Part shown: positions 25,159 through 35,537 of the stretch, piece after piece
How positions within the stretch are numbered: the first letter of the stretch is position 1
Layout: every line of letters begins with the position of its first letter
From: Escherichia coli
GTDB lineage: Bacteria > Pseudomonadota > Gammaproteobacteria > Enterobacterales > Enterobacteriaceae
Assembly (NCBI RefSeq): GCF_024700885.2
Contig: NZ_CP117016.1
Reading direction: 5' to 3' (one strand)
DNA length: 64,000 nucleotides
The notes under the pieces: generated by a model
What the model saw: only the letters and a program-made list of their open reading frames with translations
Databases searched by the model: none
Told to the model about the DNA's origin: nothing
Position numbers and translations under genes: made by a program

Positions 25159-28100
25159 ATGGGTAAAGGCAGCAGTAAGGGGCATACCCCGCGCGAAGCG
25201 AAGGACAACCTGAAGTCCACGCAGTTGCTGAGTGTGATCGATGCCATCAGCGAAGGGCCGGTTGAAGGTCCGGTGGATGGGTTAAAAAGCGTGCTGCTGA
25301 ACAGTACGCCGGTGCTGGACAGTGAGGGGAATACCAATATCTCCGGTGTCACGGTGGTGTTCCGGGCAGGTGAGCAGGAGCAGACACCGCCGGAGGGGTT
25401 TGAATCCTCCGGTTCCGAGACGGTGCTGGGTACGGAAGTGAAATATGACACGCCGATCACCCGCACCATCACGTCGGCAAACATCGACCGTCTGCGCTTT
25501 ACTTTCGGCGTGCAGGCACTGGTGGAAACCACCTCAAAGGGTGACAGGAATCCGTCGGAAGTCCGTCTGCTGGTTCAGATACAACGTAACGGTGGCTGGG
25601 TGACGGAAAAAGACATCACCATTAAGGGCAAAACCACCTCGCAGTATCTGGCCTCGGTGGTGGTGGATAATCTGCCGCCGCGCCCGTTTAATATCCGGAT
25701 GCGCAGGATGACGCCGGACAGCACCACAGACCAGCTGCAGAACAAAACGCTCTGGTCGTCATACACCGAAATCATCGATGTGAAACAGTGCTACCCGAAC
25801 ACGGCACTGGTCGGCGTGCAGGTGGATTCGGAGCAGTTCGGCAGCCAGCAGGTGAGCCGTAATTATCATCTTCGCGGGCGCATTCTGCAGGTGCCGTCGA
25901 ATTATAACCCGCAGACGCGGCAATACAGCGGTATCTGGGACGGAACGTTAAAACCGGCATACAGCAACAACATGGCCTGGTGTCTGTGGGATATGCTGAC
26001 CCACCCGCGCTACGGCATGGGGAAACGTCTTGGTGCGGCAGATGTGGATAAATGGGCGCTGTATGTCATCGGCCAGAATTGCGACCAGTCAGTGCCGGAC
26101 GGCTTTGGCGGCACGGAGCCGCGCATCACCTGTAATGCGTACCTGACCACACAGCGCAAGGCGTGGGATGTGCTCAGTGATTTCTGCTCGGCGATGCGCT
26201 GTATGCCGGTATGGAACGGGCAGACGCTGACGTTCGTGCAGGACCGACCGTCGGATAAGGTGTGGACCTATAACCGCAGTAATGTGGTGATGCCGGATGA
26301 TGGCGCGCCGTTCCGCTACAGCTTCAGCGCCCTGAAGGACCGCCATAATGCCGTTGAGGTGAACTGGATTGACCCGAACAACGGCTGGGAGACGGCGACA
26401 GAGCTTGTTGAAGATACGCAGGCCATTGCCCGTTACGGTCGTAACGTCACGAAGATGGATGCCTTTGGCTGTACCAGCCGGGGGCAGGCGCACCGCGCCG
26501 GGCTGTGGCTGATTAAAACGGAACTGCTGGAAACGCAGACCGTGGACTTCAGCGTGGGTGCGGAAGGGCTTCGCCATGTACCGGGGGATGTCATTGAAAT
26601 CTGCGATGATGACTATGCGGGTATCAGCATCGGCGGGCGCGTGCTGGCGGTGAACAGCCAGACCCGGACGCTGACGCTCGACCGTGAAATCACGCTGCCA
26701 TCCTCCGGTACCACGCTGATAAGCCTGGTTGACGGAAGTGGCAATCCGGTCAGCGTGGAGGTCCAGTCCGTCACCGACGGCGTGAAGGTAAAAGTGAGCC
26801 GTGTTCCTGACGGCGTTGCCGGATACAGCGTGTGGGGGCTGAAGCTGCCGACGCTGCGCCAGCGCCTGTTCCGCTGCGTGAGTATCCGTGAGAACGATGA
26901 CGGCACGTATGCCATCACCGCCGTGCAGCATGTACCGGAAAAAGAGGCCATCGTGGATAACGGGGCGCACTTTGACGGCGACCAGAGCGGCACGGTGAAT
27001 GGTGTCACGCCGCCAGCAGTGCAGCATCTGACCGCCGAAGTCACTGCAGACAGCGGGGAATATCAGGTGCTGGCGCGATGGGACACGCCGAAGGTGGTGA
27101 AGGGCGTGAGCTTCCTGCTTCGCCTGACCGTGGCAGCGGATGACGGCAGTGAGCGGCTGGTCAGCACGGCCCGGACGGCGGAAACCACATACCGCTTCAC
27201 GCAACTGGCGCTGGGACGGTACACGCTGACAGTCCGGGCGGTAAATGCGTGGGGACAGCAGGGCGATCCGGCGTCGGTATCGTTCAGGATTGCCGCACCG
27301 GTAGCACCGTCGCGGATTGAGCTGACGCCGGGCTATTTTCAGATAACTGCCACGCCGCATCTTGCGGTTTATGATCCGACGGTACAGTTTGAGTTCTGGT
27401 TCTCGGAAAAGCGGATTGCGGATATCAGGCAGGTTGAAACCACAGCCCGCTATCTTGGCACGGCGCTGTACTGGATAGCTGCCAGTATCAATATCAAACC
27501 GGGCCATGATTATTATTTTTACATCCGCAGTGTGAACACCGTTGGCAAATCGGCATTTGTGGAGGCTGTTGGCCAGCCGAGTGATGATGCATCCGGCTAT
27601 CTGGATTTTTTCAAAGGCGAGATAGGGAAAAGCCATCTGGCTCAGGAGCTGTGGACGCAGATTGATAACGGTCAGCTTGCGCCTGACCTGGCTGAAATCA
27701 GGACGTCCATTACGGATGTCAGCAATGAAATCACGCAGACCGTCAATAAGAAACTGGAAGACCAGAGTGCGGCAATTCAGCAGATACAGAAGGTTCAGGT
27801 TGATACAAATAATAACCTGAACAGCATGTGGGCTGTGAAGCTGCAGCAGATGCAGGACGGACGCCTTTATATCGCGGGTATTGGTGCCGGTATTGAGAAC
27901 ACCCCTGACGGCATGCAGAGTCAGGTGCTGCTGGCGGCGGACAGGATTGCGATGGTTAATCCTGCGAATGGCAACACAAAGCCGATGTTTGTTGGTCAGG
28001 GCGATCAGATATTCATGAACGAAGTGTTCCTGAAATATCTGACGGCTCCCACCATTACCAGCGGCGGTAATCCTCCGGCATTTTCCCTGACACCGGACGG

Positions 28101-28638
28101 GCGGCTGACGGCGAAAAATGCCGATATCAGCGGTAGCGTGAATGCGAACTCCGGGACGCTCAACAACGTCACGATTAACGAGAACTGTCGGGTTCTGGGA
28201 AAACTGTCCGCGAACCAGATTGAAGGCGATCTCGTTAAAACAGTGGGCAAAGCTTTCCCCCGGGACTCCCGTGCACCGGAGCGGTGGCCATCAGGGACCA
28301 TTACCGTCAGGGTTTATGACGATCAGCCGTTTGACCGGCAAATTGTTATTCCAGCGGTGGCTTTCAGCGGTGCCAGACATGAACGGGAGAATAGCGATAC
28401 TTATTCGTCATGCCGCCTGATAGTGAAGAAAAACGGGGCTGAAATTTATAACCGAACGGCTCTGGATAATACTCTGATTTACACGGGTGTTATTGATATG
28501 CCTGCAGGCAGTGGCGTAATGACACTGGAGTTTTCTGTATCAGCATGGTGGGTAAATGGCTGGTATCCCACAGCAAGTATCAGCGATTTGCTGGTTGTTG
28601 TGATGAAGAAAGCCACTGCAGGCATCACGATTAGCTGA
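25159..28638 (+). CDS. Host specificity / central tail fibre protein J
   Basis: 1159 aa, lambda J-like size and position. Confidence 0.85.
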
Positions 28639-28705: not shown

Positions 28706-29305
28706 ATGCGTAAATTATGTGCTGTTATTCTGTCCACAGTAGTCTGGCTGGTCGCCGCTGGTACGCCAGCGAGCGCAGCAGAGCATCAGTCCACACTAAG
28801 CGCCGGGTATCTTCAGACCCATACTGATATGCCCGGCAACGATGACCTGAAGGGCATTAACGTGAAATACCGTTATGAATTTACGGACACGCTGGGGCTG
28901 GTGACGTCATTCAGTTATGCCAATGCCAAAGATGAGCAAAAAACGCATTACAGCGATACCCGCTGGCATGAAGATTCAGTGCGTAACCGCTGGTTCAGCA
29001 TGATGGCGGGGCCGTCTGTACGCGTGAATGAATGGTTCAGTGCTTATGCGATGGCAGGTGTGGCTTACAGCCGTGTTTCGACTTTTTCCGGGGATTATCT
29101 CCGCGTAACTGACAGCAAGGGGAAAACGCACGATGTGCTGACCGGAAGTGATGACGGTCGCCACAGCAACACGTCTCTGGCGTGGGGGGCTGGCGTGCAG
29201 TTTAACCCGACCGAATCCGTGGCCATTGATATTGCTTATGAAGGCTCCGGCAGTGGTGACTGGCGCACTGACGGTTTCATCGTGGGTGTCGGTTATAAAT
29301 TCTGA
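28706..29305 (+). CDS. lom: Lom outer-membrane protein (Ail/Lom family)
   Basis: Signal peptide then beta-barrel pattern, C-terminal aromatic residue (GVGYKF). Confidence 0.8.
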   Translation: MRKLCAVILSTVVWLVAAGTPASAAEHQSTLSAGYLQTHTDMPGNDDLKGINVKYRYEFTDTLGLVTSFSYANAKDEQKTHYSDTRWHEDSVRNRWFSMMAGPSVRVNEWFSAYAMAGVAYSRVSTFSGDYLRVTDSKGKTHDVLTGSDDGRHSNTSLAWGAGVQFNPTESVAIDIAYEGSGSGDWRTDGFIVGVGYKF

Positions 29306-29358: not shown

Positions 29359-29369
29359 GTGGAGTGGAT

Positions 29370-31769
29370 ATGGCAGCAGTAAAAATCTCAGGTGTGCTGA
29401 AAGATGGTGCGGGAAAACCAATACAGAACTGCACTATTCAACTGAAGGCAAAGCGTAACAGCACCACGGTACTGGTGAACACGGTGGCCTCTGAAAATCC
29501 TGATGAAGCCGGGCGTTACAGCATGGATGTTGAGTATGGCCAGTACAGCGTCACCCTGCTGGTTGAAGGTTTTCCGCCTTCACATGCCGGGACCATTACC
29601 GTCTATGAAGGCTCCAGACCAGGTACGCTGAATGATTTTCTCGGTGCCATGACGGAAGATGATGTCATGCCGGAGGCATTGCGTCGTTTTGAGGCAATGG
29701 TGGAAGAAGTGGCACGCAACGCCGAAGCCGCCTCTCAGAGCGCAGCGGCGGCAAAGAAATCCGAAACTGCAGCGGCATCATCAAAGAACGCGGCGAAAAC
29801 CTCAGAAACGAATGCAGCTAATAGTGCACAGGCGGCAGCGACCTCAAAGACTGCATCGGCAAACTCCGCGACAGCAGCCAAAAAATCAGAAACCAACGCG
29901 AAAAATAGCGAGACAGCCGCAAAGACGAGCGAAACCAACGCAAAGTCCAGCCAGACGGCAGCGAAAACCAGCGAAACGAATGCCAAAGCCAGTGAAACTG
30001 CGGCAAAAAACAGCCAGGTTGCAGCAGCCCAAAGCGAGAGCGCGGCAGCCGGTTCTGCGACTTCAGCAGCTGGATCAGCAACTGCTGCGGCTAACAGCCA
30101 GAAAGCTGCGAAGACGAGTGAAACTAACGCAAAGTCCAGCCAGACGGCAGCGAAGACCAGCGAAACGAATGCCAAAACCAGCGAAACTGCGGCGAAAAAC
30201 AGTCAGGATGCAGCAGCCCAAAGCGAGAGTGCCGCAGCTGGTTCTGCAAGTGCGGCGGCTTCTTCTGCCACTGCATCAGCCAACAGTCAAAAAGCTGCAA
30301 AAACCAGTGAAACCAACGCAAAGGCGAGCGAGACTGCGGCGGCTAACTCGGCGAAAGCATCCGCTGCAAGCCAGACGGCAGCTAAAGCAAGTGAAGATGC
30401 AGCCAGAGAGTACGCAAGCCAGGCTGCGGAGCCGTATAAACAAGTTTTGCAGCCGCTTCCCGATGTGTGGATACCGTTTAACGATTCACTGGATATGATT
30501 ACGGGCTTTTCGCCGTCATATAAAAAGATTGTTATTGGTGATGATGAAATAACGATGCCTGGCGATAAGGTTGTAAAGTTTAAACGCGCATCAACTGCCA
30601 CATATATCAATAAATCAGGCGTATTTAGTGTTGCTAAAATTGATGAGCCACGATTTGAAAAAGAAGGTTTATTGATTGAAGGACAGCGCACTAACTATTT
30701 TGTTAAATCCAATATCCCCGCTGAATGGACGAGTACCAGCAATATCGATAAAACTAATAATGGTGTTGATGAATTTGGTTTTTCATATGCCAAAATGCGA
30801 ACAAAAGATAATATGACAGGACAATCATCTGCACTTAGTCTGCATACATGCAGTGCATCCCGGGGGATTGATGTTAGTGGCGATAATAAGTATTGCACTG
30901 TTTCATGCAGGGTTAAAGCTCCTGATGGTCTTCGTTGTCGTTTGCGTTTTGAAAAATACGATGGGTCGGTTTATACATTTTTAGGAGATGCTTATTTAAC
31001 TTTCGGAACTCTGATAATAGAAAAAACTGGCGGAGCAGCCAATAGAATAGCAGCTACTGCAACTAAAGATCCGGTTACAGGGTGGATTTTCTATGAGGCA
31101 ACTATAGAAGCTGTTGAAGGTGAAACCTTAATTGGCGCAATGATTCAGTATGCGCCGAAAAAAGGTGGTGTAACTGAAGCGGGAGATTATATTTACCTTG
31201 CAACACCACAATTTGAAAACGGCGGATGTGCTTCATCTTTTGTTATTACGACAACTGTACCCGCAACCCGCTCCAGTGATATGGTGACGATCCCAACTGA
31301 AAATAATATCTATAATAGACCGCTTACGTGCCTGGTCGAGGTTAATAGAAATTGGGGCGATATTCCTCCTAATGTAGCACCGCGTATTTTTGATTTTTCT
31401 GGTGTGCCACCTATTGAGTCAATTACATACGCTTTTAACACAACTGAGAAATATTACGGTCAGCTTTATATGCAAACTTATAAAGCGTCGACAAGTACTT
31501 ACGTTTCTAGTGTGTTTGCTGGTCGAACTGATGTTCGAAAATTCATTGGTGGTTTTAATATTTATTCTGATGGTACTAAACGAGTAGTTTCTAACGGTGA
31601 GGCTACTAAAACTATGAAAACGGAGTGGACGGGCGTAAAAACACGGACCTTTATTCGAATTGGAGGTCAAGCCACATCGGGAACTCGTCATCTATTCGGC
31701 CATTTGAGAAATCTTCGTCTCTGGCATAAAGAATTAACTGATGCGCAAATGGGGGAGAGTATTAAATGA
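29370..31769 (+). CDS. Side tail fibre protein with repetitive Ala/Lys/Thr/Ser shaft and low-GC C-terminal domain
   Basis: N-terminal conserved tail-fibre start (AAVKISGVLKDGAGKPIQNCTIQLKA); repeats AAKTSETNAK; C-terminal ~400 aa markedly AT-rich. Confidence 0.7.
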   Translation: MAAVKISGVLKDGAGKPIQNCTIQLKAKRNSTTVLVNTVASENPDEAGRYSMDVEYGQYSVTLLVEGFPPSHAGTITVYEGSRPGTLNDFLGAMTEDDVMPEALRRFEAMVEEVARNAEAASQSAAAAKKSETAAASSKNAAKTSETNAANSAQAAATSKTASANSATAAKKSETNAKNSETAAKTSETNAKSSQTAAKTSETNAKASETAAKNSQVAAAQSESAAAGSATSAAGSATAAANSQKAAKTSETNAKSSQTAAKTSETNAKTSETAAKNSQDAAAQSESAAAGSASAAASSATASANSQKAAKTSETNAKASETAAANSAKASAASQTAAKASEDAAREYASQAAEPYKQVLQPLPDVWIPFNDSLDMITGFSPSYKKIVIGDDEITMPGDKVVKFKRASTATYINKSGVFSVAKIDEPRFEKEGLLIEGQRTNYFVKSNIPAEWTSTSNIDKTNNGVDEFGFSYAKMRTKDNMTGQSSALSLHTCSASRGIDVSGDNKYCTVSCRVKAPDGLRCRLRFEKYDGSVYTFLGDAYLTFGTLIIEKTGGAANRIAATATKDPVTGWIFYEATIEAVEGETLIGAMIQYAPKKGGVTEAGDYIYLATPQFENGGCASSFVITTTVPATRSSDMVTIPTENNIYNRPLTCLVEVNRNWGDIPPNVAPRIFDFSGVPPIESITYAFNTTEKYYGQLYMQTYKASTSTYVSSVFAGRTDVRKFIGGFNIYSDGTKRVVSNGEATKTMKTEWTGVKTRTFIRIGGQATSGTRHLFGHLRNLRLWHKELTDAQMGESIK
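29740..30330. repeat. Coding tandem repeats in tail fibre gene
   Basis: Two imperfect ~200-bp tandem units (about 29920-30110 and 30122-30310) plus shorter ~24-bp sub-repeats encoding AAKTSETNAK. Confidence 0.6.
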
Positions 31770-32047
31770 AAGATTTAACACTCAAATTTGCAGACAGGGC
31801 CGACTTTTCGGCCTTTATGGAGAGTATTGGCTATTATGATGACGAGTCGATGCAGGATGATATTCTTATTGACGTGATAGGTAACGTGTACAAAGAAACC
31901 GGAGAACTGACTGAAGATGGCGAACCGGTATGTGTTAAGGAAGACGGATATTTTGTAAACGTGCGCATCATTAATGATGTGAAAACACCGTCAATATTCG
32001 ATGAATACGTGGTTGCTGTTGAGCATCAACTTCGTGGCTGGATGTGA
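31766..32047 (+). CDS. Hypothetical acidic protein in tail-fibre module
   Basis: 93-aa ORF, start overlaps stf stop, AT-rich. Confidence 0.3.
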   Translation: MKDLTLKFADRADFSAFMESIGYYDDESMQDDILIDVIGNVYKETGELTEDGEPVCVKEDGYFVNVRIINDVKTPSIFDEYVVAVEHQLRGWM

Positions 32048-32056
32048 GGAAGAAAA

Positions 32057-32761
32057 ATGGCTACATCGACAGTAATTCCAGGAGATATCACCACGCTAAA
32101 GGGAGATGTCAGTAAAACTAAGGAAGATATTTCCTCAATTAACGGAAAAGTATCAACGCTTCAGACTGATATGACCAGTGCAAAGCAGGATATCAGCACC
32201 AGATACACAAAAACTGAAGTTGATAATAAGCTGAAAAACAAAGTGGAAGTGAACGATCTGGAAAGTGGTCGTTATGGCGGAGATTTTTATCCACTGACAG
32301 GTCGTGAAGCGTTTTATTTATGGAATTTGGCCACGACTACAGCGGCGGCAAACCTTTATCTTAATCCTGACCCCGCAATTTCGTCTGTGCTGCGGTCAAC
32401 ATCGTCTATCCGCTATAAACATTCAGTAGAGACAATAGATTCAGAGCACGCTGATCTCATTTTCAGGATGCGCCCTGTGTGGTACAGGTCACAATGCGAA
32501 AATGACAGGCGTGACTGGGGATTCTACGGATTGATTGCCGAGGAAGTAGGAGAAATTGCCCCTCAGTTTGTACACTGGCGACCAGCTAACGAAGATGATG
32601 CTCCTGAAGCTATTTCCAGCAATGGCCTTGTTGCCGAAGGTGTAATGTACGAACGTCTGGTTGTTCCACTGATTCACCATATCCAGAAGCTGACTGAAAG
32701 AGTTGATGAACTTGAGTCAGAATTAAAGTTGTTATTAACTTCCCGAAGCGATATCGGATAA
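32057..32761 (+). CDS. Tail-fibre-type protein with S74-like intramolecular chaperone domain
   Basis: N-terminal coiled coil then S74-like segment (SSIRYKHSVETID...MRPVWY...DWGFYGLIAEEVGEIAPQFVH...LVAEGVMYERLVVPLIHHIQKL). Confidence 0.5.
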   Translation: MATSTVIPGDITTLKGDVSKTKEDISSINGKVSTLQTDMTSAKQDISTRYTKTEVDNKLKNKVEVNDLESGRYGGDFYPLTGREAFYLWNLATTTAAANLYLNPDPAISSVLRSTSSIRYKHSVETIDSEHADLIFRMRPVWYRSQCENDRRDWGFYGLIAEEVGEIAPQFVHWRPANEDDAPEAISSNGLVAEGVMYERLVVPLIHHIQKLTERVDELESELKLLLTSRSDIG

Positions 32762-32771
32762 AGGAGGAATA

Positions 32772-33059
32772 ATGGATATAACACCTTTCCTTCATGCACT
32801 TTGTGCTGTGGCTGCGCAGGTACTGGTTGGTCTTTTTACCGGAAACTGGGCTTACGGGGCGATAGCCGGTTGTACGTTCTTCATTGCGCGTGAACACACC
32901 CAGGCAGAATATCGCTGGATCGAAATGTTCGGGCATGGCAAGCGAATGAATATGCCGTGGTGGGGCGGTTTTGATACACGTGCATGGGATGTGGCAAGCC
33001 TGATGGATTTTGCTGTGCCGGTGGTGGCGTGTCTGCTGATCTGGCTGTTGATCCGTTAA
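32772..33059 (+). CDS. Small membrane protein, unknown function
   Basis: 95 aa with 2-3 hydrophobic segments; RBS AAGGAGG. Confidence 0.3.
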   Translation: MDITPFLHALCAVAAQVLVGLFTGNWAYGAIAGCTFFIAREHTQAEYRWIEMFGHGKRMNMPWWGGFDTRAWDVASLMDFAVPVVACLLIWLLIR

Positions 33060-33061
33060 AT

Positions 33062-33110
33062 ATAAAAAGCCGCAGTAACTTGCCATGGCAGGATACTGCG
33101 GCTGGTTTGT
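33062..33110. terminator. Bidirectional terminator between tail-fibre module and RT gene
   Basis: 10-bp stem AGCCGCAGTA/TACTGCGGCT (33068-33103) with A-run before and T-rich run after. Confidence 0.45.
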
Positions 33111-33166: not shown

Positions 33167-34537
33167 CTATGATATTCCTGAGATATCCTCTTCAAGCTCT
33201 TTTACTGATTTCGCAATTTTAAATTTAAACTTCCTCTCTATTTCACTATTGCTAAGTTTTTTTTCCTTCTCTTTACCTATCCACATAGAAACAAGTTCTC
33301 GTTTCTGAGATATATGTAAATTATCAAAGTTAGGTATGTATTTAAAAGTCTCCGCTCTACCTCTGCGGAGTTCATAGAAAGTTTTAATCAAAGACTTTGG
33401 TTTTATTTCTGATGAAAGGCCGAATCGGTGGATAAGATTATTGATAGTATGATTAACAGAGCGAAGTTGAGCTGTTGAGGTTATTTGTGAGAAGTACGAT
33501 ACCCATCCCAATCGTTTACCTTCAAACACACATCCCGTAATTCTGAGATTTAGTTTCCACTGACAATATGCAACAGCTCGTTCTTTATCACGCTTACTTT
33601 TAGCTTGTAGTAGAGCGTGCCTGTATGCAGTAAAAATCCTTGCTAAAGATGACTCAAATCTAAGAATGCTCTCATGTTTTATCAATAATTCTCGATTTTC
33701 TATGTGGTATCCCAAAAAGTTAAAACTTTCATCCAAGCTGCCTACTTTGGATTTTGAGTTCTCTTCATTTAATGGATGTGGGTTTAAATTTAATGATTGA
33801 AGCTTATCAATGATATGAGAAGCTATTTTTGTTGCTTGATATTTTGGTGTTAAAATAAGAATGTCATCAACGTATCGCATGTACCATATGTCATGCATTT
33901 TATTGATTTCATCATCAAAATTAGATAGTGATATTTCAGCTAAAATGTTTGATATCGCTAATCCCTGAGGTACCCCTCTGGTATTATTCGGGATACCTTT
34001 GCTTCCTGTTGTTCCACTTACAGTAGGCACGATTAATGATGATGTTATTAACTGTCTAATTTCTTTTTTTCTAATTTTATTTTTTATTGTATTAATTATC
34101 AATTTATGTTCAATTGAAGGATAGAAACTTTTAAGATCTATTTTTGCATATTCAGCATAAAGACTGCTGTTTAATGCTTCTTTCAATGAGTCAATTACTG
34201 TATGTGGTAGTTTTAATCTGGAGTTAGGATATATTTCCGTAAGGCATTCACAGAGAGTTCTAAGAGTAATTCTGTCCCTAGCAGTTGGTATGGAAATCTG
34301 TCTGGGTGTAGAGTTAGCGCCTTTAGATATTAATTTTTCTTTATATGCTGTAAATTTGTAATTGCCAGAGTTAACCTTTTCAAAAATGAAAGCGATCTCA
34401 TTTTTTATTGTCAAATCAAGTTTTGATGGGCGAATCCGATCTATGCCAATCGCTCCTGATTCTTTGATTTTTTCAGTGTATACTTTTAGAAGGTTTTTTT
34501 TCGAGAATGACTTTTTAAAAATTCTGCTTGCAGTCAT
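33167..34537 (-). CDS. Reverse transcriptase (defence-associated type, unclassified)
   Basis: Ordered RT motifs: RQISIPTARDRITLRTL, KIDLKSFYPSIEH, GVPQGLAISNILAEISLS, YMRYVDDILIL, FNFLGYHI; ~30% GC; alternative TTG start at 34543. Confidence 0.8.
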   Translation of the reverse strand: MTASRIFKKSFSKKNLLKVYTEKIKESGAIGIDRIRPSKLDLTIKNEIAFIFEKVNSGNYKFTAYKEKLISKGANSTPRQISIPTARDRITLRTLCECLTEIYPNSRLKLPHTVIDSLKEALNSSLYAEYAKIDLKSFYPSIEHKLIINTIKNKIRKKEIRQLITSSLIVPTVSGTTGSKGIPNNTRGVPQGLAISNILAEISLSNFDDEINKMHDIWYMRYVDDILILTPKYQATKIASHIIDKLQSLNLNPHPLNEENSKSKVGSLDESFNFLGYHIENRELLIKHESILRFESSLARIFTAYRHALLQAKSKRDKERAVAYCQWKLNLRITGCVFEGKRLGWVSYFSQITSTAQLRSVNHTINNLIHRFGLSSEIKPKSLIKTFYELRRGRAETFKYIPNFDNLHISQKRELVSMWIGKEKEKKLSNSEIERKFKFKIAKSVKELEEDISGIS

Positions 34538-35066
34538 AGTCAATCCAAAGATATATTAATGGGAGTATATAAAGGGCGGCAGTAGTAAATATTCGAAGTA
34601 ATATCCATAAAATAACAATTATTTTTTCTTTTTGTGTGGGGATCCTCGTCGTAAGTCCAACTTGAGTTACCCTTGAAATTTTATCATCTATGTCACGGTG
34701 ATTCTCAACCTCATTGAGCAAATTAAAATATTTTTCTTTCTGTTCAAGAGTTAACTGTTGACTGGTGGTAATGTCAAAATAGAGTCGCTGTAGTGCAATA
34801 TAATTCCTTCTCATGGCTATTGCTCGACCACGAAAATCTAGGTTAGATACGATCAGCGAAATACCCAGTAGGGCCACCGAAAGTATTGCCGCAACGATAT
34901 CTGTGTTATCTCCTAGAACTTTTGGAAATCGCAACGTTACAATTGAAAGTACCGCACTCAATATAGCATACCAAACGAGGATAAATTGAGAGTGCTTTTC
35001 AAGCCATTCTAGTCGATGGTGCGCTTGGATACGGGCTTTATATGTAAACCAAATATTGTCATGCAT
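34515..35066 (-). CDS. Small multi-TM membrane protein, candidate effector partner of RT
   Basis: 183 aa; hydrophobic helices FILVWYAILSAVLSIVTL, IVAAILSVALLGISLIVSNL, IIVILWILLRIFTTAALYILPLIYLWI; 3' end overlaps RT start; RBS AAGGA. Confidence 0.6.
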   Translation of the reverse strand: MHDNIWFTYKARIQAHHRLEWLEKHSQFILVWYAILSAVLSIVTLRFPKVLGDNTDIVAAILSVALLGISLIVSNLDFRGRAIAMRRNYIALQRLYFDITTSQQLTLEQKEKYFNLLNEVENHRDIDDKISRVTQVGLTTRIPTQKEKIIVILWILLRIFTTAALYILPLIYLWIDYDCKQNF

Positions 35067-35288: not shown

Positions 35289-35537
35289 TTAATGAACAAA
35301 CCACTCGTCAGCAGACTCCCAGGTATCTTTCAGAGTTTCCTGAACAAAAGTTTTAGCTGAATCTTTATCGGCGGTGCGCGTAACAGAAAGGCCATCGTTG
35401 CTGGTGGCTTTTACGATCACCTCTACATCGTCATAACGCTTACTGATGCGTCGAGTTAATTCTTCCTTTAACGCATCCACAGCACCGCTTGGCATTTTAG
35501 TCATTTTCTCTTTAGCTATGCAGATCTCAATACGCAT
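35289..35537 (-). CDS. DinI-like protein
   Basis: 82 aa; MRIEI...AKEK...LPAGA-DAL--EL-RRI...[10 protein letters not shown] pattern of the DinI family. Confidence 0.75.

Follow-up and report, generated by a model that had tools for sequence, protein, structure and literature searches.

The window, a stretch of 64,000 nucleotides of Escherichia coli DNA, contains a short gene that ends in an S74-type intramolecular chaperone domain, which raises the question of whether such a protein is a minimal tail fibre in its own right or a factor acting in trans on the assembly of the fibre encoded upstream. The open reading frame (ORF) had been placed at 32057..32761 on the plus strand with a length of 234 aa, and position, strand and length were borne out. 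It starts with ATG, comprises 234 codons plus a stop and encodes a predicted precursor of 26.3 kDa. On inspection the frame is intact and preceded by a good ribosome-binding site, with the Shine-Dalgarno motif GAGGA (32046..32050, plus strand) located 6 nt before the ATG and overlapping the TGA stop of an upstream 93-aa gene. All peptides quoted in the original prediction are found in the translation, namely TLKGDVSK...QDIS (residues 13-47), SSIRYKHS (116-123), MRPVWY (138-143), DWGFYGLIAEEVGEIAPQFVH (153-173) and LVVPLIHHIQKLTERVDELESEL (201-223). The identical gene is labelled 'tail fiber domain-containing protein' in RefSeq, and the antisense ORFs overlapping it match no PHROG family. For the protein and its orthologues, the literature yielded annotations and one structural-class mention; functional or virion-proteomic data were not found.

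The assignment of the C-terminal domain as an S74 self-cleaving intramolecular chaperone is supported by profile, invariant residues and predicted fold. The domain (32402..32758, plus strand; residues 116-234, 13.8 kDa), with a long helix at 198-233 at its end, lies at the extreme C-terminus of the 234-residue protein, after a predicted coiled coil and a conserved tip. An HMM search had been proposed as a check of the S74 call, and Pfam PF13884 (Peptidase_S74) indeed matches residues 116-172 over profile positions 1-57 of 58, with 27.2 bits and an E-value of 4.7e-6, above the gathering score of 22. The same profile scores 22.6 bits in the orthologue of phage PeterMerian and 52.3 bits in a 345-aa allele of the gene. 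Further matches are phrog_3299 (E 6e-140) and several other PHROGs described as 'tail fiber protein', and 3580 relatives were obtained at E<=1e-3 among 1.84 billion cluster representatives. In the PDB, an L-shaped tail fibre is matched by sequence at its C-terminal end (8hqz_d, E 1.9e-7). In the AF2 model, residues 121-233 have pLDDT values of 84-98 and combine alpha and beta elements with a long helix at the C-terminal end. Foldseek relates this model to the MyRF ICA domain (7dc3, E 1.8e-5, probability 1.00) and to the phage chaperone structures 3gud (probability 0.97) and 3gw6. The combination that had been read from the letters, an N-terminal coiled coil and a C-terminal S74 domain within one short separate ORF, was thus recovered by structure prediction and profile match.

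Autocleavage is predicted at 32399..32419 (plus strand), where Thr115|Ser116 would be the scissile bond, Ser116 the nucleophile and Lys121 the base of an S-x4-K dyad. The site was assigned by alignment to LtfA (TSGIEYK) and by analogy to T5 pb1, which is cleaved at Thr1263|Ser1264 and in which Lys1269 takes the corresponding place (PMC4690869). Ser116 and Lys121 are invariant in both alignments, comprising 17 and 58 relatives. In S74 proteins, upstream sensor residues, an Asp and an Arg of a neighbouring chain, couple cleavage to correct folding of the trimer. Candidates for such sensors are the likewise invariant N99 and R113, the latter an arginine three residues before the cut that characterises the subfamily; the T5 sensors Asp1239 and Arg1250 are not mappable onto it by sequence, and the tip has no usable model. 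The domain had been described as preceded by only ~100 residues. The short length holds, while the exact figure is 115 residues before the predicted cleavage site. Among the best 141 relatives in which the motif could be located, the median pre-cleavage length is 362 residues; the shortness is not unique, as ~10% of these have 130 residues or fewer.

What had been called a stand-alone protein is not really one: its gene comes third in a conserved fibre cassette with the order Stf, p93, S74 gene. The side tail fibre Stf (29370..31769, plus strand; 799 aa from the ATG at 29370) has a phage_tail_N domain and a coiled coil rich in Ala and Ser; its C-terminal part is globular and contains a GTA_spike_fiber domain. 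The gene of its partner p93 (31766..32047, plus strand; 93 aa, phrog_1361) starts within the stf stop (ATGA), and comparison of p93 with Pfam, NCBIfam, PADLOC and PDB sequences gave no match. It is located immediately upstream of the S74 gene in 76 of the 77 IMG/VR loci, and it abuts a fibre gene in every annotated row among the matches listed. From stf to the S74 gene the spacing is tight and no terminator is predicted, as in a single transcription unit. Downstream follows a gene for a 95-aa membrane protein (32772..33059, plus strand; phrog_1443), present in 73 of the 75 IMG/VR loci with room for one. It follows the S74 gene in lambdoid prophages only, being absent from the cassettes of Drexlerviridae and Nonagvirus, and its product is probably not part of the fibre.

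The order of Stf, p93 and a third gene recurs in Drexlerviridae, Queuovirinae and one T5-like phage. The C-terminal ~555 residues of Stf are 46-98% identical in all cassette-carrying phages. In the Drexlerviridae, the one non-lambdoid group checked, the tail-binding N-terminus of Stf differs, while its C-terminal part and p93 are shared. A search for an Stf segment conserved only together with an anchor-type third gene gave no convincing group-specific region, so that the docking site on Stf was not pinpointed; the highly conserved block 360-440 is also present in phages without the third gene. At the start of the S74 protein, residues 2-4 track the p93 type in 75 of 75 loci, which may reflect simple linkage because only 9-12 nt lie between them. 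Among ten anchor-bearing loci checked, p93 and the third gene are in the same frame in all ten, with a spacer of 9 or 12 nt. A stop-codon readthrough that would fuse p93 to the S74 protein was rejected: the stop is TAA in five of these loci and TGA in the other five, which makes a conserved readthrough unlikely.

The part of the protein before the cleavage site starts with an N-terminal anchor (32057..32122, plus strand; residues 1-22, MATSTVIPGDITTLKGDVSKTK). Its consensus, MxTxTxIPxDIxxLK, covers about 17-22 residues, and at least 61 phage records have a third gene that begins with it; it is kept across lambdoid phages, Drexlerviridae, Queuovirinae, one T5-like phage and one Dhillonvirus, and its dN/dS is 0.23. 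The anchor runs into a coiled-coil rod (32087..32242, plus strand; residues ~11-62), with helices predicted at 11-47 and 52-62 and pLDDT values of 75-83 in the monomer and 79-90 in a linked-trimer run. In 22 of 23 cases, the coiled-coil lengths of homologues differ by 7-residue steps. The rod is followed by the pre-cleavage tip (32252..32401, plus strand; residues 66-115, GDFYPLTGREAFYLWNLATTTAAANLYLNPDPAISSVLRST), a module that also ends many long fibres directly before their S74 domain. Residues 50-234 share 56-59% identity with the C-terminal ends of such fibres, which are 539-1243 aa long. The tip residues T93, T94, A98, N99, R113, S114 and T115 are invariant or nearly so, and with a dN/dS of 0.13 the tip is as constrained as the chaperone domain (0.12). 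For residues 63-115, AF2 gave no usable model either as monomer or as linker-joined trimer (tip pLDDT <50). In the homotrimer run, Gly-Ser linkers of 60 residues connected the three copies and the alignment had 14 rows; the mean pLDDT was 54.8 with <30 in the tip, only the N-terminal helices being confident. No recognisable receptor-binding domain was found in the mature 115 residues.

The third slot of the cassette is occupied by interchangeable alleles. Proteins of 227, 234, 345, 351 and 510 aa are found there that share the anchor only, and they assort independently of the Stf and p93 alleles. The window and phage 2G7b, for example, have near-identical p93 and different third genes, and PhiR55_1 and PhiR11_1 share both p93 and Stf and again differ in the third gene. 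The alleles of 2G7b, Tritos and PhiR11_1 (345-346 aa), ESCO3 (351 aa) and KurtStettler (510 aa) all follow p93 and, like the window allele, the shortest form among these, combine an identical or near-identical anchor with a C-terminal S74 domain. They differ from it in an unrelated middle region of ~200-250 residues and in the S74 subtype, which is closest to that of Salmonella phage S16 gp37 (6f45, E 0.0013). The similarity of the middle region of the 345-aa allele to T4 gp34 is not significant (E 0.33-0.6).

Of 5426 complete E. coli genomes, 739 (~14%) carry the S74 gene at its full length, and orthologues with ~57% identity are found in virulent Drexlerviridae with genomes of roughly 50 kb. 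As the third member of a side-tail-fibre cassette that is very common, it is real and conserved but ordinary, widespread and already annotated. The domain call was correct and holds no surprise for specialists.

Of the two functions suggested earlier, the comparative evidence favours a second, minimal fibre over an assembly factor, because the slot holds interchangeable, anchor-sharing fibre alleles that assort independently of Stf and p93, and because the pre-cleavage part is under purifying selection and its coiled coil varies in 7-residue steps. With moderate confidence, we therefore read the ORF as a functional minimal tail-fibre subunit, the third component of a mobile cassette of Stf, p93 and an anchor-bearing distal protein. 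The analysis shows the identity of the domain, its conserved dyad and predicted fold, the make-up of the cassette, the exchange of alleles, the purifying selection and the broad occurrence of the gene; that the protein forms trimers, cleaves itself and enters the virion, and to which partner or receptor it binds, is inferred. The S74 domain (116-234) would act in cis and bring three nascent chains into register, template the trimeric folding of the tip (66-115) and zip up the coiled coil (~11-62). Correct folding of the trimer would be followed by cleavage of Thr115|Ser116 by Ser116, with Lys121 as its activator, and the 13.8-kDa chaperone would leave. The mature product would then be a trimer of 12.5-kDa chains with a short coiled-coil rod and a small beta-rich tip. 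Its N-terminal 17-22 residues would mount it on the virion, most likely on the C-terminal part of Stf and/or on p93, where it would lengthen each side tail fibre or branch from it over a short distance, probably to make contact with the host surface.

The alternative is a trans-acting assembly factor, a chaperone or cap for the upstream Stf without a receptor-binding role. Anchor and coiled coil would then dock transiently on nascent Stf and aid its trimerisation, after which the protein would leave or stay as a cap. Fibre chaperone genes usually sit downstream of the fibre gene, as this one does; the mature part is tiny and lacks a recognisable binding domain, and orthologues have been labelled as chaperones. 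The destabilisation of LtfA in phage DT57C upon loss of the second fibre protein LtfB also points in this direction (PMC4728585). However, the S74 domains of T5 pb1 (PMC4690869) and of LtfA and LtfB (PMC4728585) act in cis and are cleaved from the C-terminus of their own polypeptide, and none of the chaperone families of the Tfa/Caudo_TAP, gp38 or gp57A type was matched in the Pfam, NCBIfam and PHROG results. Co-variation between the alleles of the third gene and the C-terminal domain of Stf is lacking, and the larger alleles with the same anchor add ~200-250 residues of fibre-like sequence. Nor is co-occurrence obligate: p93 is found in 183 phage records as compared with 54 for the 234-aa allele, and the isolated phages mEp460_4F5 and Lambda_4C10 have Stf and p93 and lack the third gene. 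The case of mEp460_4F5 also counts against the minimal-fibre reading, since at least some relatives of Stf can do without the S74 protein. A chaperone role in trans is thus disfavoured, and we consider it unlikely. We likewise doubt that the protein is an independent short fibre attached elsewhere than to Stf or p93, for instance at the tail tip or in the J region, and linked to stf by gene order only. J-like tip proteins are present in all carrier phages and a docking site on Stf was not found, but the S74 gene follows p93, and p93 an Stf-type gene, in 76 of 77 IMG/VR loci and in other phage groups, and the N-terminus of the S74 protein is constant across phage groups while the tail-binding N-terminus of Stf is different in Drexlerviridae.

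Two further readings would deny the protein a structural role. It is very improbable that the released chaperone fragment or the uncleaved precursor is the real product, acting for example in lysogenic conversion or exclusion together with the membrane protein. The conserved 95-aa membrane gene that follows in lambdoid prophages and the adjoining accessory cargo (a DRT reverse transcriptase with a SLATT protein, and dinI) are in line with such a role, yet the cassettes of Drexlerviridae and Nonagvirus keep the S74 gene without the membrane protein, the gene is part of a late fibre operon and the pre-cleavage part is strongly constrained. A functionless, decaying remnant, either a C-terminal fragment of a formerly long fibre or what a deletion left of the 345-aa allele, is hardly credible. 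The whole ORF does align to the last ~237 positions of the 1385-position phrog_3299 profile, and residues 50-234 match the ends of long fibres. The ORF, however, is equipped with a start codon and ribosome-binding site of its own and with an N-terminal anchor, it is intact in 75 of 77 viral loci as well as in the 739 genomes, and the catalytic motif RSTSSxRYK is retained in 76 of 77. Orthologues are kept in compact virulent genomes, and the mean dN/dS of the gene is 0.17, with 0.13 in the pre-cleavage tip, indicating purifying selection. Intactness and dN/dS effectively refute the pseudogene reading.

A broader version of the preferred minimal-fibre reading takes the anchor as a portable plug and the conserved trunk, the C-terminal part of Stf together with p93, as a socket that accepts interchangeable distal fibres in the third slot, the 234-aa allele being the minimal plug. 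We regard this version as unlikely. In its radical form, the 234-aa protein would not bind a receptor as a fibre at all but be a blank cap, or an S74 factor that stabilises or matures the Stf trimer in trans; if the latter were true, it would be the first S74 domain serving another polypeptide. Lambdoid, T1-like, 9g/Seurat-like, T5-like and Dhillon-type siphophages have this trunk in common. Which types of O-antigen or LPS are passable for a siphophage depends on its side or lateral tail fibres, and a modular build therefore matters for host-range prediction and phage engineering. What the locus adds is that a very common coliphage fibre cassette has a swappable third slot, marked by a short conserved anchor. 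If the anchor is truly a docking peptide, it would offer an easy way to equip lambda-like, T1-like and 9g-like phages with new distal fibres, and the 234-aa protein would be a compact model for S74-driven trimerisation and self-cleavage.

Among known systems, the branched lateral fibres of DT57C (LtfA/LtfB) and phiEco32 (gp14/gp15) come close in that a second fibre gene lies downstream of the main one and each of the two proteins carries an S74 domain. The second protein is thought to reach the virion only through the first, via its N-terminus (PMC4728585), and by analogy the window protein may work like these two-component fibres. Judged by sequence it is nevertheless not a member of this family, which is marked by the first 45 residues of LtfB/gp15 and by homology to the LtfA trunk (223-471); neither mark was found here. 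BLASTP detected no similarity between the anchor and the docking N-terminus of LtfB, the shared features being Ala-rich and YTKTEVD-type repeats and S74 domains. DT57C, moreover, has no p93 between ltfA and ltfB, and LtfB has 788 residues with a real receptor-binding region, whereas 115 are left in the window protein. In phage lambda, Stf and Tfa are likewise encoded after J and lom, and Stf has the same phage_tail_N domain at its N-terminus; the C-terminal half of Stf differs, and in the window p93 and the S74 protein follow downstream while a Tfa homologue is absent.

With T5 pb1, the K1F endosialidase, GA-1 gp12 and the eukaryotic MyRF ICA, the window protein shares the C-terminal position of the S74 domain, the profile, the S-x4-K dyad at the domain boundary and a predicted alpha/beta fold with a long end helix. 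In characterised S74 proteins, the beta-helix, spike or receptor-binding domain before it extends over several hundred residues and up to 1263, in contrast to the 115 residues of coiled coil and ~50-residue tip found here. By its description, the RBPseg class TC7, with an N-terminal coiled coil and a C-terminal peptidase S74, matches this architecture (PMC12143355). Orthologues in virulent siphophages are those of Warwickvirus within the Drexlerviridae, PeterMerian bas05_0029, SECphi27 gp79 and that of Jahat, with 55-61% full-length identity. Anchor, coiled coil, tip and S74 domain all recur in them, as does the place after a lateral-fibre gene and a p93 homologue; they differ in the phage family, the N-terminus of Stf and the lack of the 95-aa membrane gene downstream. 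As annotations only, bas05_0029 is labelled 'putative lateral tail fiber chaperone' and the proteins of SECphi27 and Jahat 'chaperone of endosialidase'. In the PeterMerian orthologue the coiled coil is 14 residues shorter and followed by a 4-residue insert.

In agreement with the original prediction, positions 32057-32761 of the window (plus strand) hold an ORF of 234 codons with an ATG start and a ribosome-binding site, GAGGA, 6 nt upstream, which shares bases with the preceding gene's stop codon; all peptide strings cited for the protein are found in it. Family support was sought for antisense ORFs over the gene, and none was found. The proposal that it carries an S74-type chaperone domain is confirmed, as profile, Ser-Lys dyad and predicted fold agree. 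Pfam PF13884 (Peptidase_S74) matches residues 116-172 over nearly the entire profile with 27.2 bits, above the gathering score of 22 (E 4.7e-6), and the whole protein aligns to the last ~237 of 1385 positions of the fibre family phrog_3299 (PHROGs, E 6e-140); several further PHROGs 'tail fiber protein' families are also matched. When 1.84 billion cluster representatives were scanned exhaustively with HMMER, 3580 relatives reached E<=1e-3. Among PDB sequences, the best match falls on the C-terminus of 8hqz_d, an L-shaped tail fibre protein (E 1.9e-7), where TSGIEYK pairs with TSSIRYK of the S74 protein.

Neither Ser116 nor Lys121 varies in an alignment of 17 relatives or in one of 58. Their counterparts in T5 pb1, which is cut at Thr1263|Ser1264 (PMC4690869), are Ser1264 as nucleophile and Lys1269 as base; by this analogy, the scissile bond is predicted to be Thr115|Ser116, with fragments of 12.5 kDa (1-115) and 13.8 kDa (116-234) according to the computed masses. 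An AlphaFold2 model based on an alignment of 58 sequences reached a pLDDT of 84-98 for residues 121-233 and 75-83 for the N-terminal helix (11-47) and was not confident for residues 63-97; a linked-trimer run gave an unusable model. Foldseek paired the AlphaFold2 model with the MyRF ICA domain (7dc3, E 1.8e-5) and with two intramolecular chaperones of phages, 3gud and 3gw6.

The protein consists of an anchor (residues 1-22), a coiled coil (~11-62), a tip (66-115) and the S74 chaperone (116-234). Residues 50-234 share 56-59% identity with the C-terminal ends of long fibres (539-1243 aa), hence tip and chaperone together are a standard module for ending a fibre. For the 141 best relatives with a locatable motif, the median pre-cleavage length is 362 residues and ~10% have 130 or fewer, which places the protein at the short end without making it unique. 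The coiled-coil lengths of 22 out of 23 homologues differ by multiples of 7 residues, a separate 4-residue insert being allowed for; such steps would also be expected from repeat slippage, and the register is kept either way. A 241-aa allele in the IMG/VR locus L078 (gene 4001-4723) carries a tandem 7-residue duplication, IAEEVGE, within the S74-domain helix of highest conservation, and its frame is still open.

The window represents the right arm of a lambdoid prophage, ending beside prfC (from 35730, plus strand). On the same strand, J (25159-28638), lom (28706-29305), stf (29370-31769) and the gene for the 93-aa protein p93 (31766-32047) precede the S74 gene, which is followed by a gene for a 95-aa membrane protein (32772-33059). 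From stf to the 95-aa gene, neighbours overlap or sit 9-10 nt apart, and the plus strand there has no predicted strong intrinsic terminator; hairpins resembling terminators lie 3' of J and of lom. The start of stf is most likely the ATG at 29370 and not the ORF finder's GTG at 29364, given GGAG 5 nt upstream and the beginning MAAVKISGVL as in lambda Stf. Both stf and lom are intact here, whereas RefSeq flags both as frameshifted in FDAARGOS_536, a strain with 100% identity over 31700-33100. Stf comprises a lambda-type phage_tail_N, a coiled coil rich in Ala and Ser, and ~430 globular C-terminal residues with a GTA_spike_fiber domain (NCBIfam, E 2.4e-14; 30700-31769, residues ~435-799), and the C-terminal part of its homologue in mEp460_4F5 ends in a match to Laminin_G_3, a concanavalin-like lectin. 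These matches make it probable that the Stf trunk fibre carries its own head for glycan binding.

The order Stf-type fibre, p93, S74 protein recurs in several phage groups, including the isolated temperate phages PhiR49_1, IdasGreatGrand, PhiR55_1, 2G7b and PhiR11_1, the virulent Drexlerviridae PeterMerian and SECphi27, Nonagvirus ESCO3 and Seuratvirus KurtStettler. Across cassette-bearing phages, the C-terminal ~555 residues of Stf are 46-98% identical, while the Drexlerviridae Stf has a different N-terminus without phage_tail_N. At 77 IMG/VR loci that encode close relatives of the window protein, p93 lies directly 5' of the S74 gene in 76, the S74 ORF is intact in 75 (227-241 aa), and the 95-aa gene follows in 73 of the 75 having room. 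A full-length S74 gene (90-100% identity) is present in 739 of 5426 complete E. coli genomes, and all listed full-length matches are annotated as 'tail fiber domain-containing protein'. One copy, 97.9% identical, resides in E. coli BL21(RP) (NZ_CP084683.1, 4445848-4446552), so that commonly used expression hosts may carry the gene as a background in expression work.

The acidic p93 (phrog_1361) has homologues in 183 phage records from at least six groups (lambdoid, Drexler-, Dhillon-, Queuo-, T5-like and rV5-like). In all listed rows having annotation it abuts a fibre gene, its start meeting or overlapping the stop of the gene with the common C-terminal domain. Searches of Pfam, NCBIfam and PDB sequences gave no recognisable family with known function and no solved relative, and p93 is a good candidate for an unrecognised family of fibre chaperones or adaptors. 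In 10 of 10 anchor-bearing loci checked (including window 32045-32059 and the phage loci L001, L002, L003, L005, L006, L008, L012, L013 and L016), p93 and the third gene share one reading frame, with a spacer of 9 or 12 nt. Programmed readthrough seems unlikely, as p93 ends in TGA at five of them and in TAA at the other five.

The third position of the cassette is modular. Some phages have a protein of 345-351 aa there (2G7b, PhiR11_1, ESCO3), and KurtStettler has one of 510 aa; of 5426 genomes, 430 contain the 345-aa allele. These proteins have a middle region and an S74 subtype without relation to those of the window protein but begin with the same 17-22 residues, MATSTVIPDDIKTLKSDVSK or MVTKTIIPTDITKLKSDV. 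A 24-residue anchor query matches third-gene starts in at least 61 phage records. In the T5-like Salmonella phage VSe12 (L014, ~4790-6520), an unannotated anchor, MVTKTVIPTDITKLKN, is encoded just 3' of p93, and in the Dhillonvirus Escherichia phage Ioannina (L017, ~4770-5572) a frameshift-interrupted MVTKTNIPADI follows p93; both run into still other fibre sequences. In these two phages the anchor start lies in annotated 'intergenic' space, the published gene models begin further 3', and the frames are broken by frameshifts that could be sequencing errors or pseudogenes. Every combination of third-gene, Stf and p93 alleles occurs. Whether anchor residues 2-4 are ATS or VTK goes with the type of p93 (75 of 75 loci), which fits co-adaptation and also plain linkage, as p93 and anchor are only 9-12 nt apart. 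The S74 protein, known from sequence, is a minimal member of the S74 fibre family, widespread and already annotated, whose gene fills the modular third position of a common cassette of fibre genes.

Beyond the domain identity, we infer by analogy that the C-terminal domain would most likely trimerise the chains, template tip and coiled coil in cis, cut at Thr115|Ser116 and depart, leaving a short trimeric rod that would mount on the virion via the anchor. The anchor is constant across phage groups, and Drexlerviridae share the C-terminal part of Stf and p93, not the tail-binding Stf N-terminus; the parsimonious docking partner would hence be Stf and/or p93, so that each side fibre would gain a short branch or extension. 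No Stf region specific to anchor-bearing phages was found. The closest functional precedent is the branched LtfA/LtfB fibres of DT57C (PMC4728585), whose docking parts have no sequence homology to the S74 protein. Fibres of RBPseg class TC7 likewise consist of coiled coil and S74, and according to the first BASEL paper lateral fibres of small siphoviruses can comprise one, two or more proteins. Within the literature library searched, no paper characterises the S74 protein.

The original prediction had left a choice between a minimal second fibre and a trans-acting assembly factor, of which the former is better supported. A trans-acting chaperone or cap for Stf, as some annotators assume, is attractive given the tiny mature part, but improbable, since the alleles assort independently, Stf and p93 exist without a third gene (in mEp460_4F5 and Lambda_4C10 the 95-aa gene directly follows p93), the larger alleles have the same anchor, and the S74 domain is arranged in cis in the published examples consulted (T5 pb1, PMC4690869; DT57C, PMC4728585). 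Attachment elsewhere on the tail is likewise unlikely, and a non-structural role seems very improbable. Across 49 distinct alleles, the mean pairwise dN/dS of the gene is 0.17, in agreement with the separate pairwise values, with 0.23 for the anchor (1-22), 0.58 for the coiled coil (23-65), 0.13 for the tip (66-115) and 0.12 for the chaperone (116-234). The tip, which cleavage would leave in place, is constrained as strongly as the chaperone; this argues for a function of the mature product. That the gene is a remnant is scarcely credible, decay being excluded by the tip constraint and by the presence of orthologues in virulent phages with compact genomes.

The predicted membrane protein of 95 aa (phrog_1443) is conserved 3' of the cassette where that lies in lambdoid prophages (73 of 75 loci) and is absent from cassette-bearing virulent phages; it may be a lysogenic-conversion or exclusion gene. 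Between the cassette and dinI (35289-35537, minus strand) at the prophage end, a two-gene defence-type system occupies 33167-35066 on the minus strand. It comprises a 458-aa reverse transcriptase (33167-34543; PADLOC RT_UG17, E 2e-158; Pfam RVT_1) and, overlapping its gene, a 183-aa two-transmembrane SLATT_5 protein (34515-35066; PADLOC RTasSLATT, E 8e-57). In related phages, the cargo at this position is a methyltransferase, sitABCD, ompT, or HNH with a gene of unknown function.
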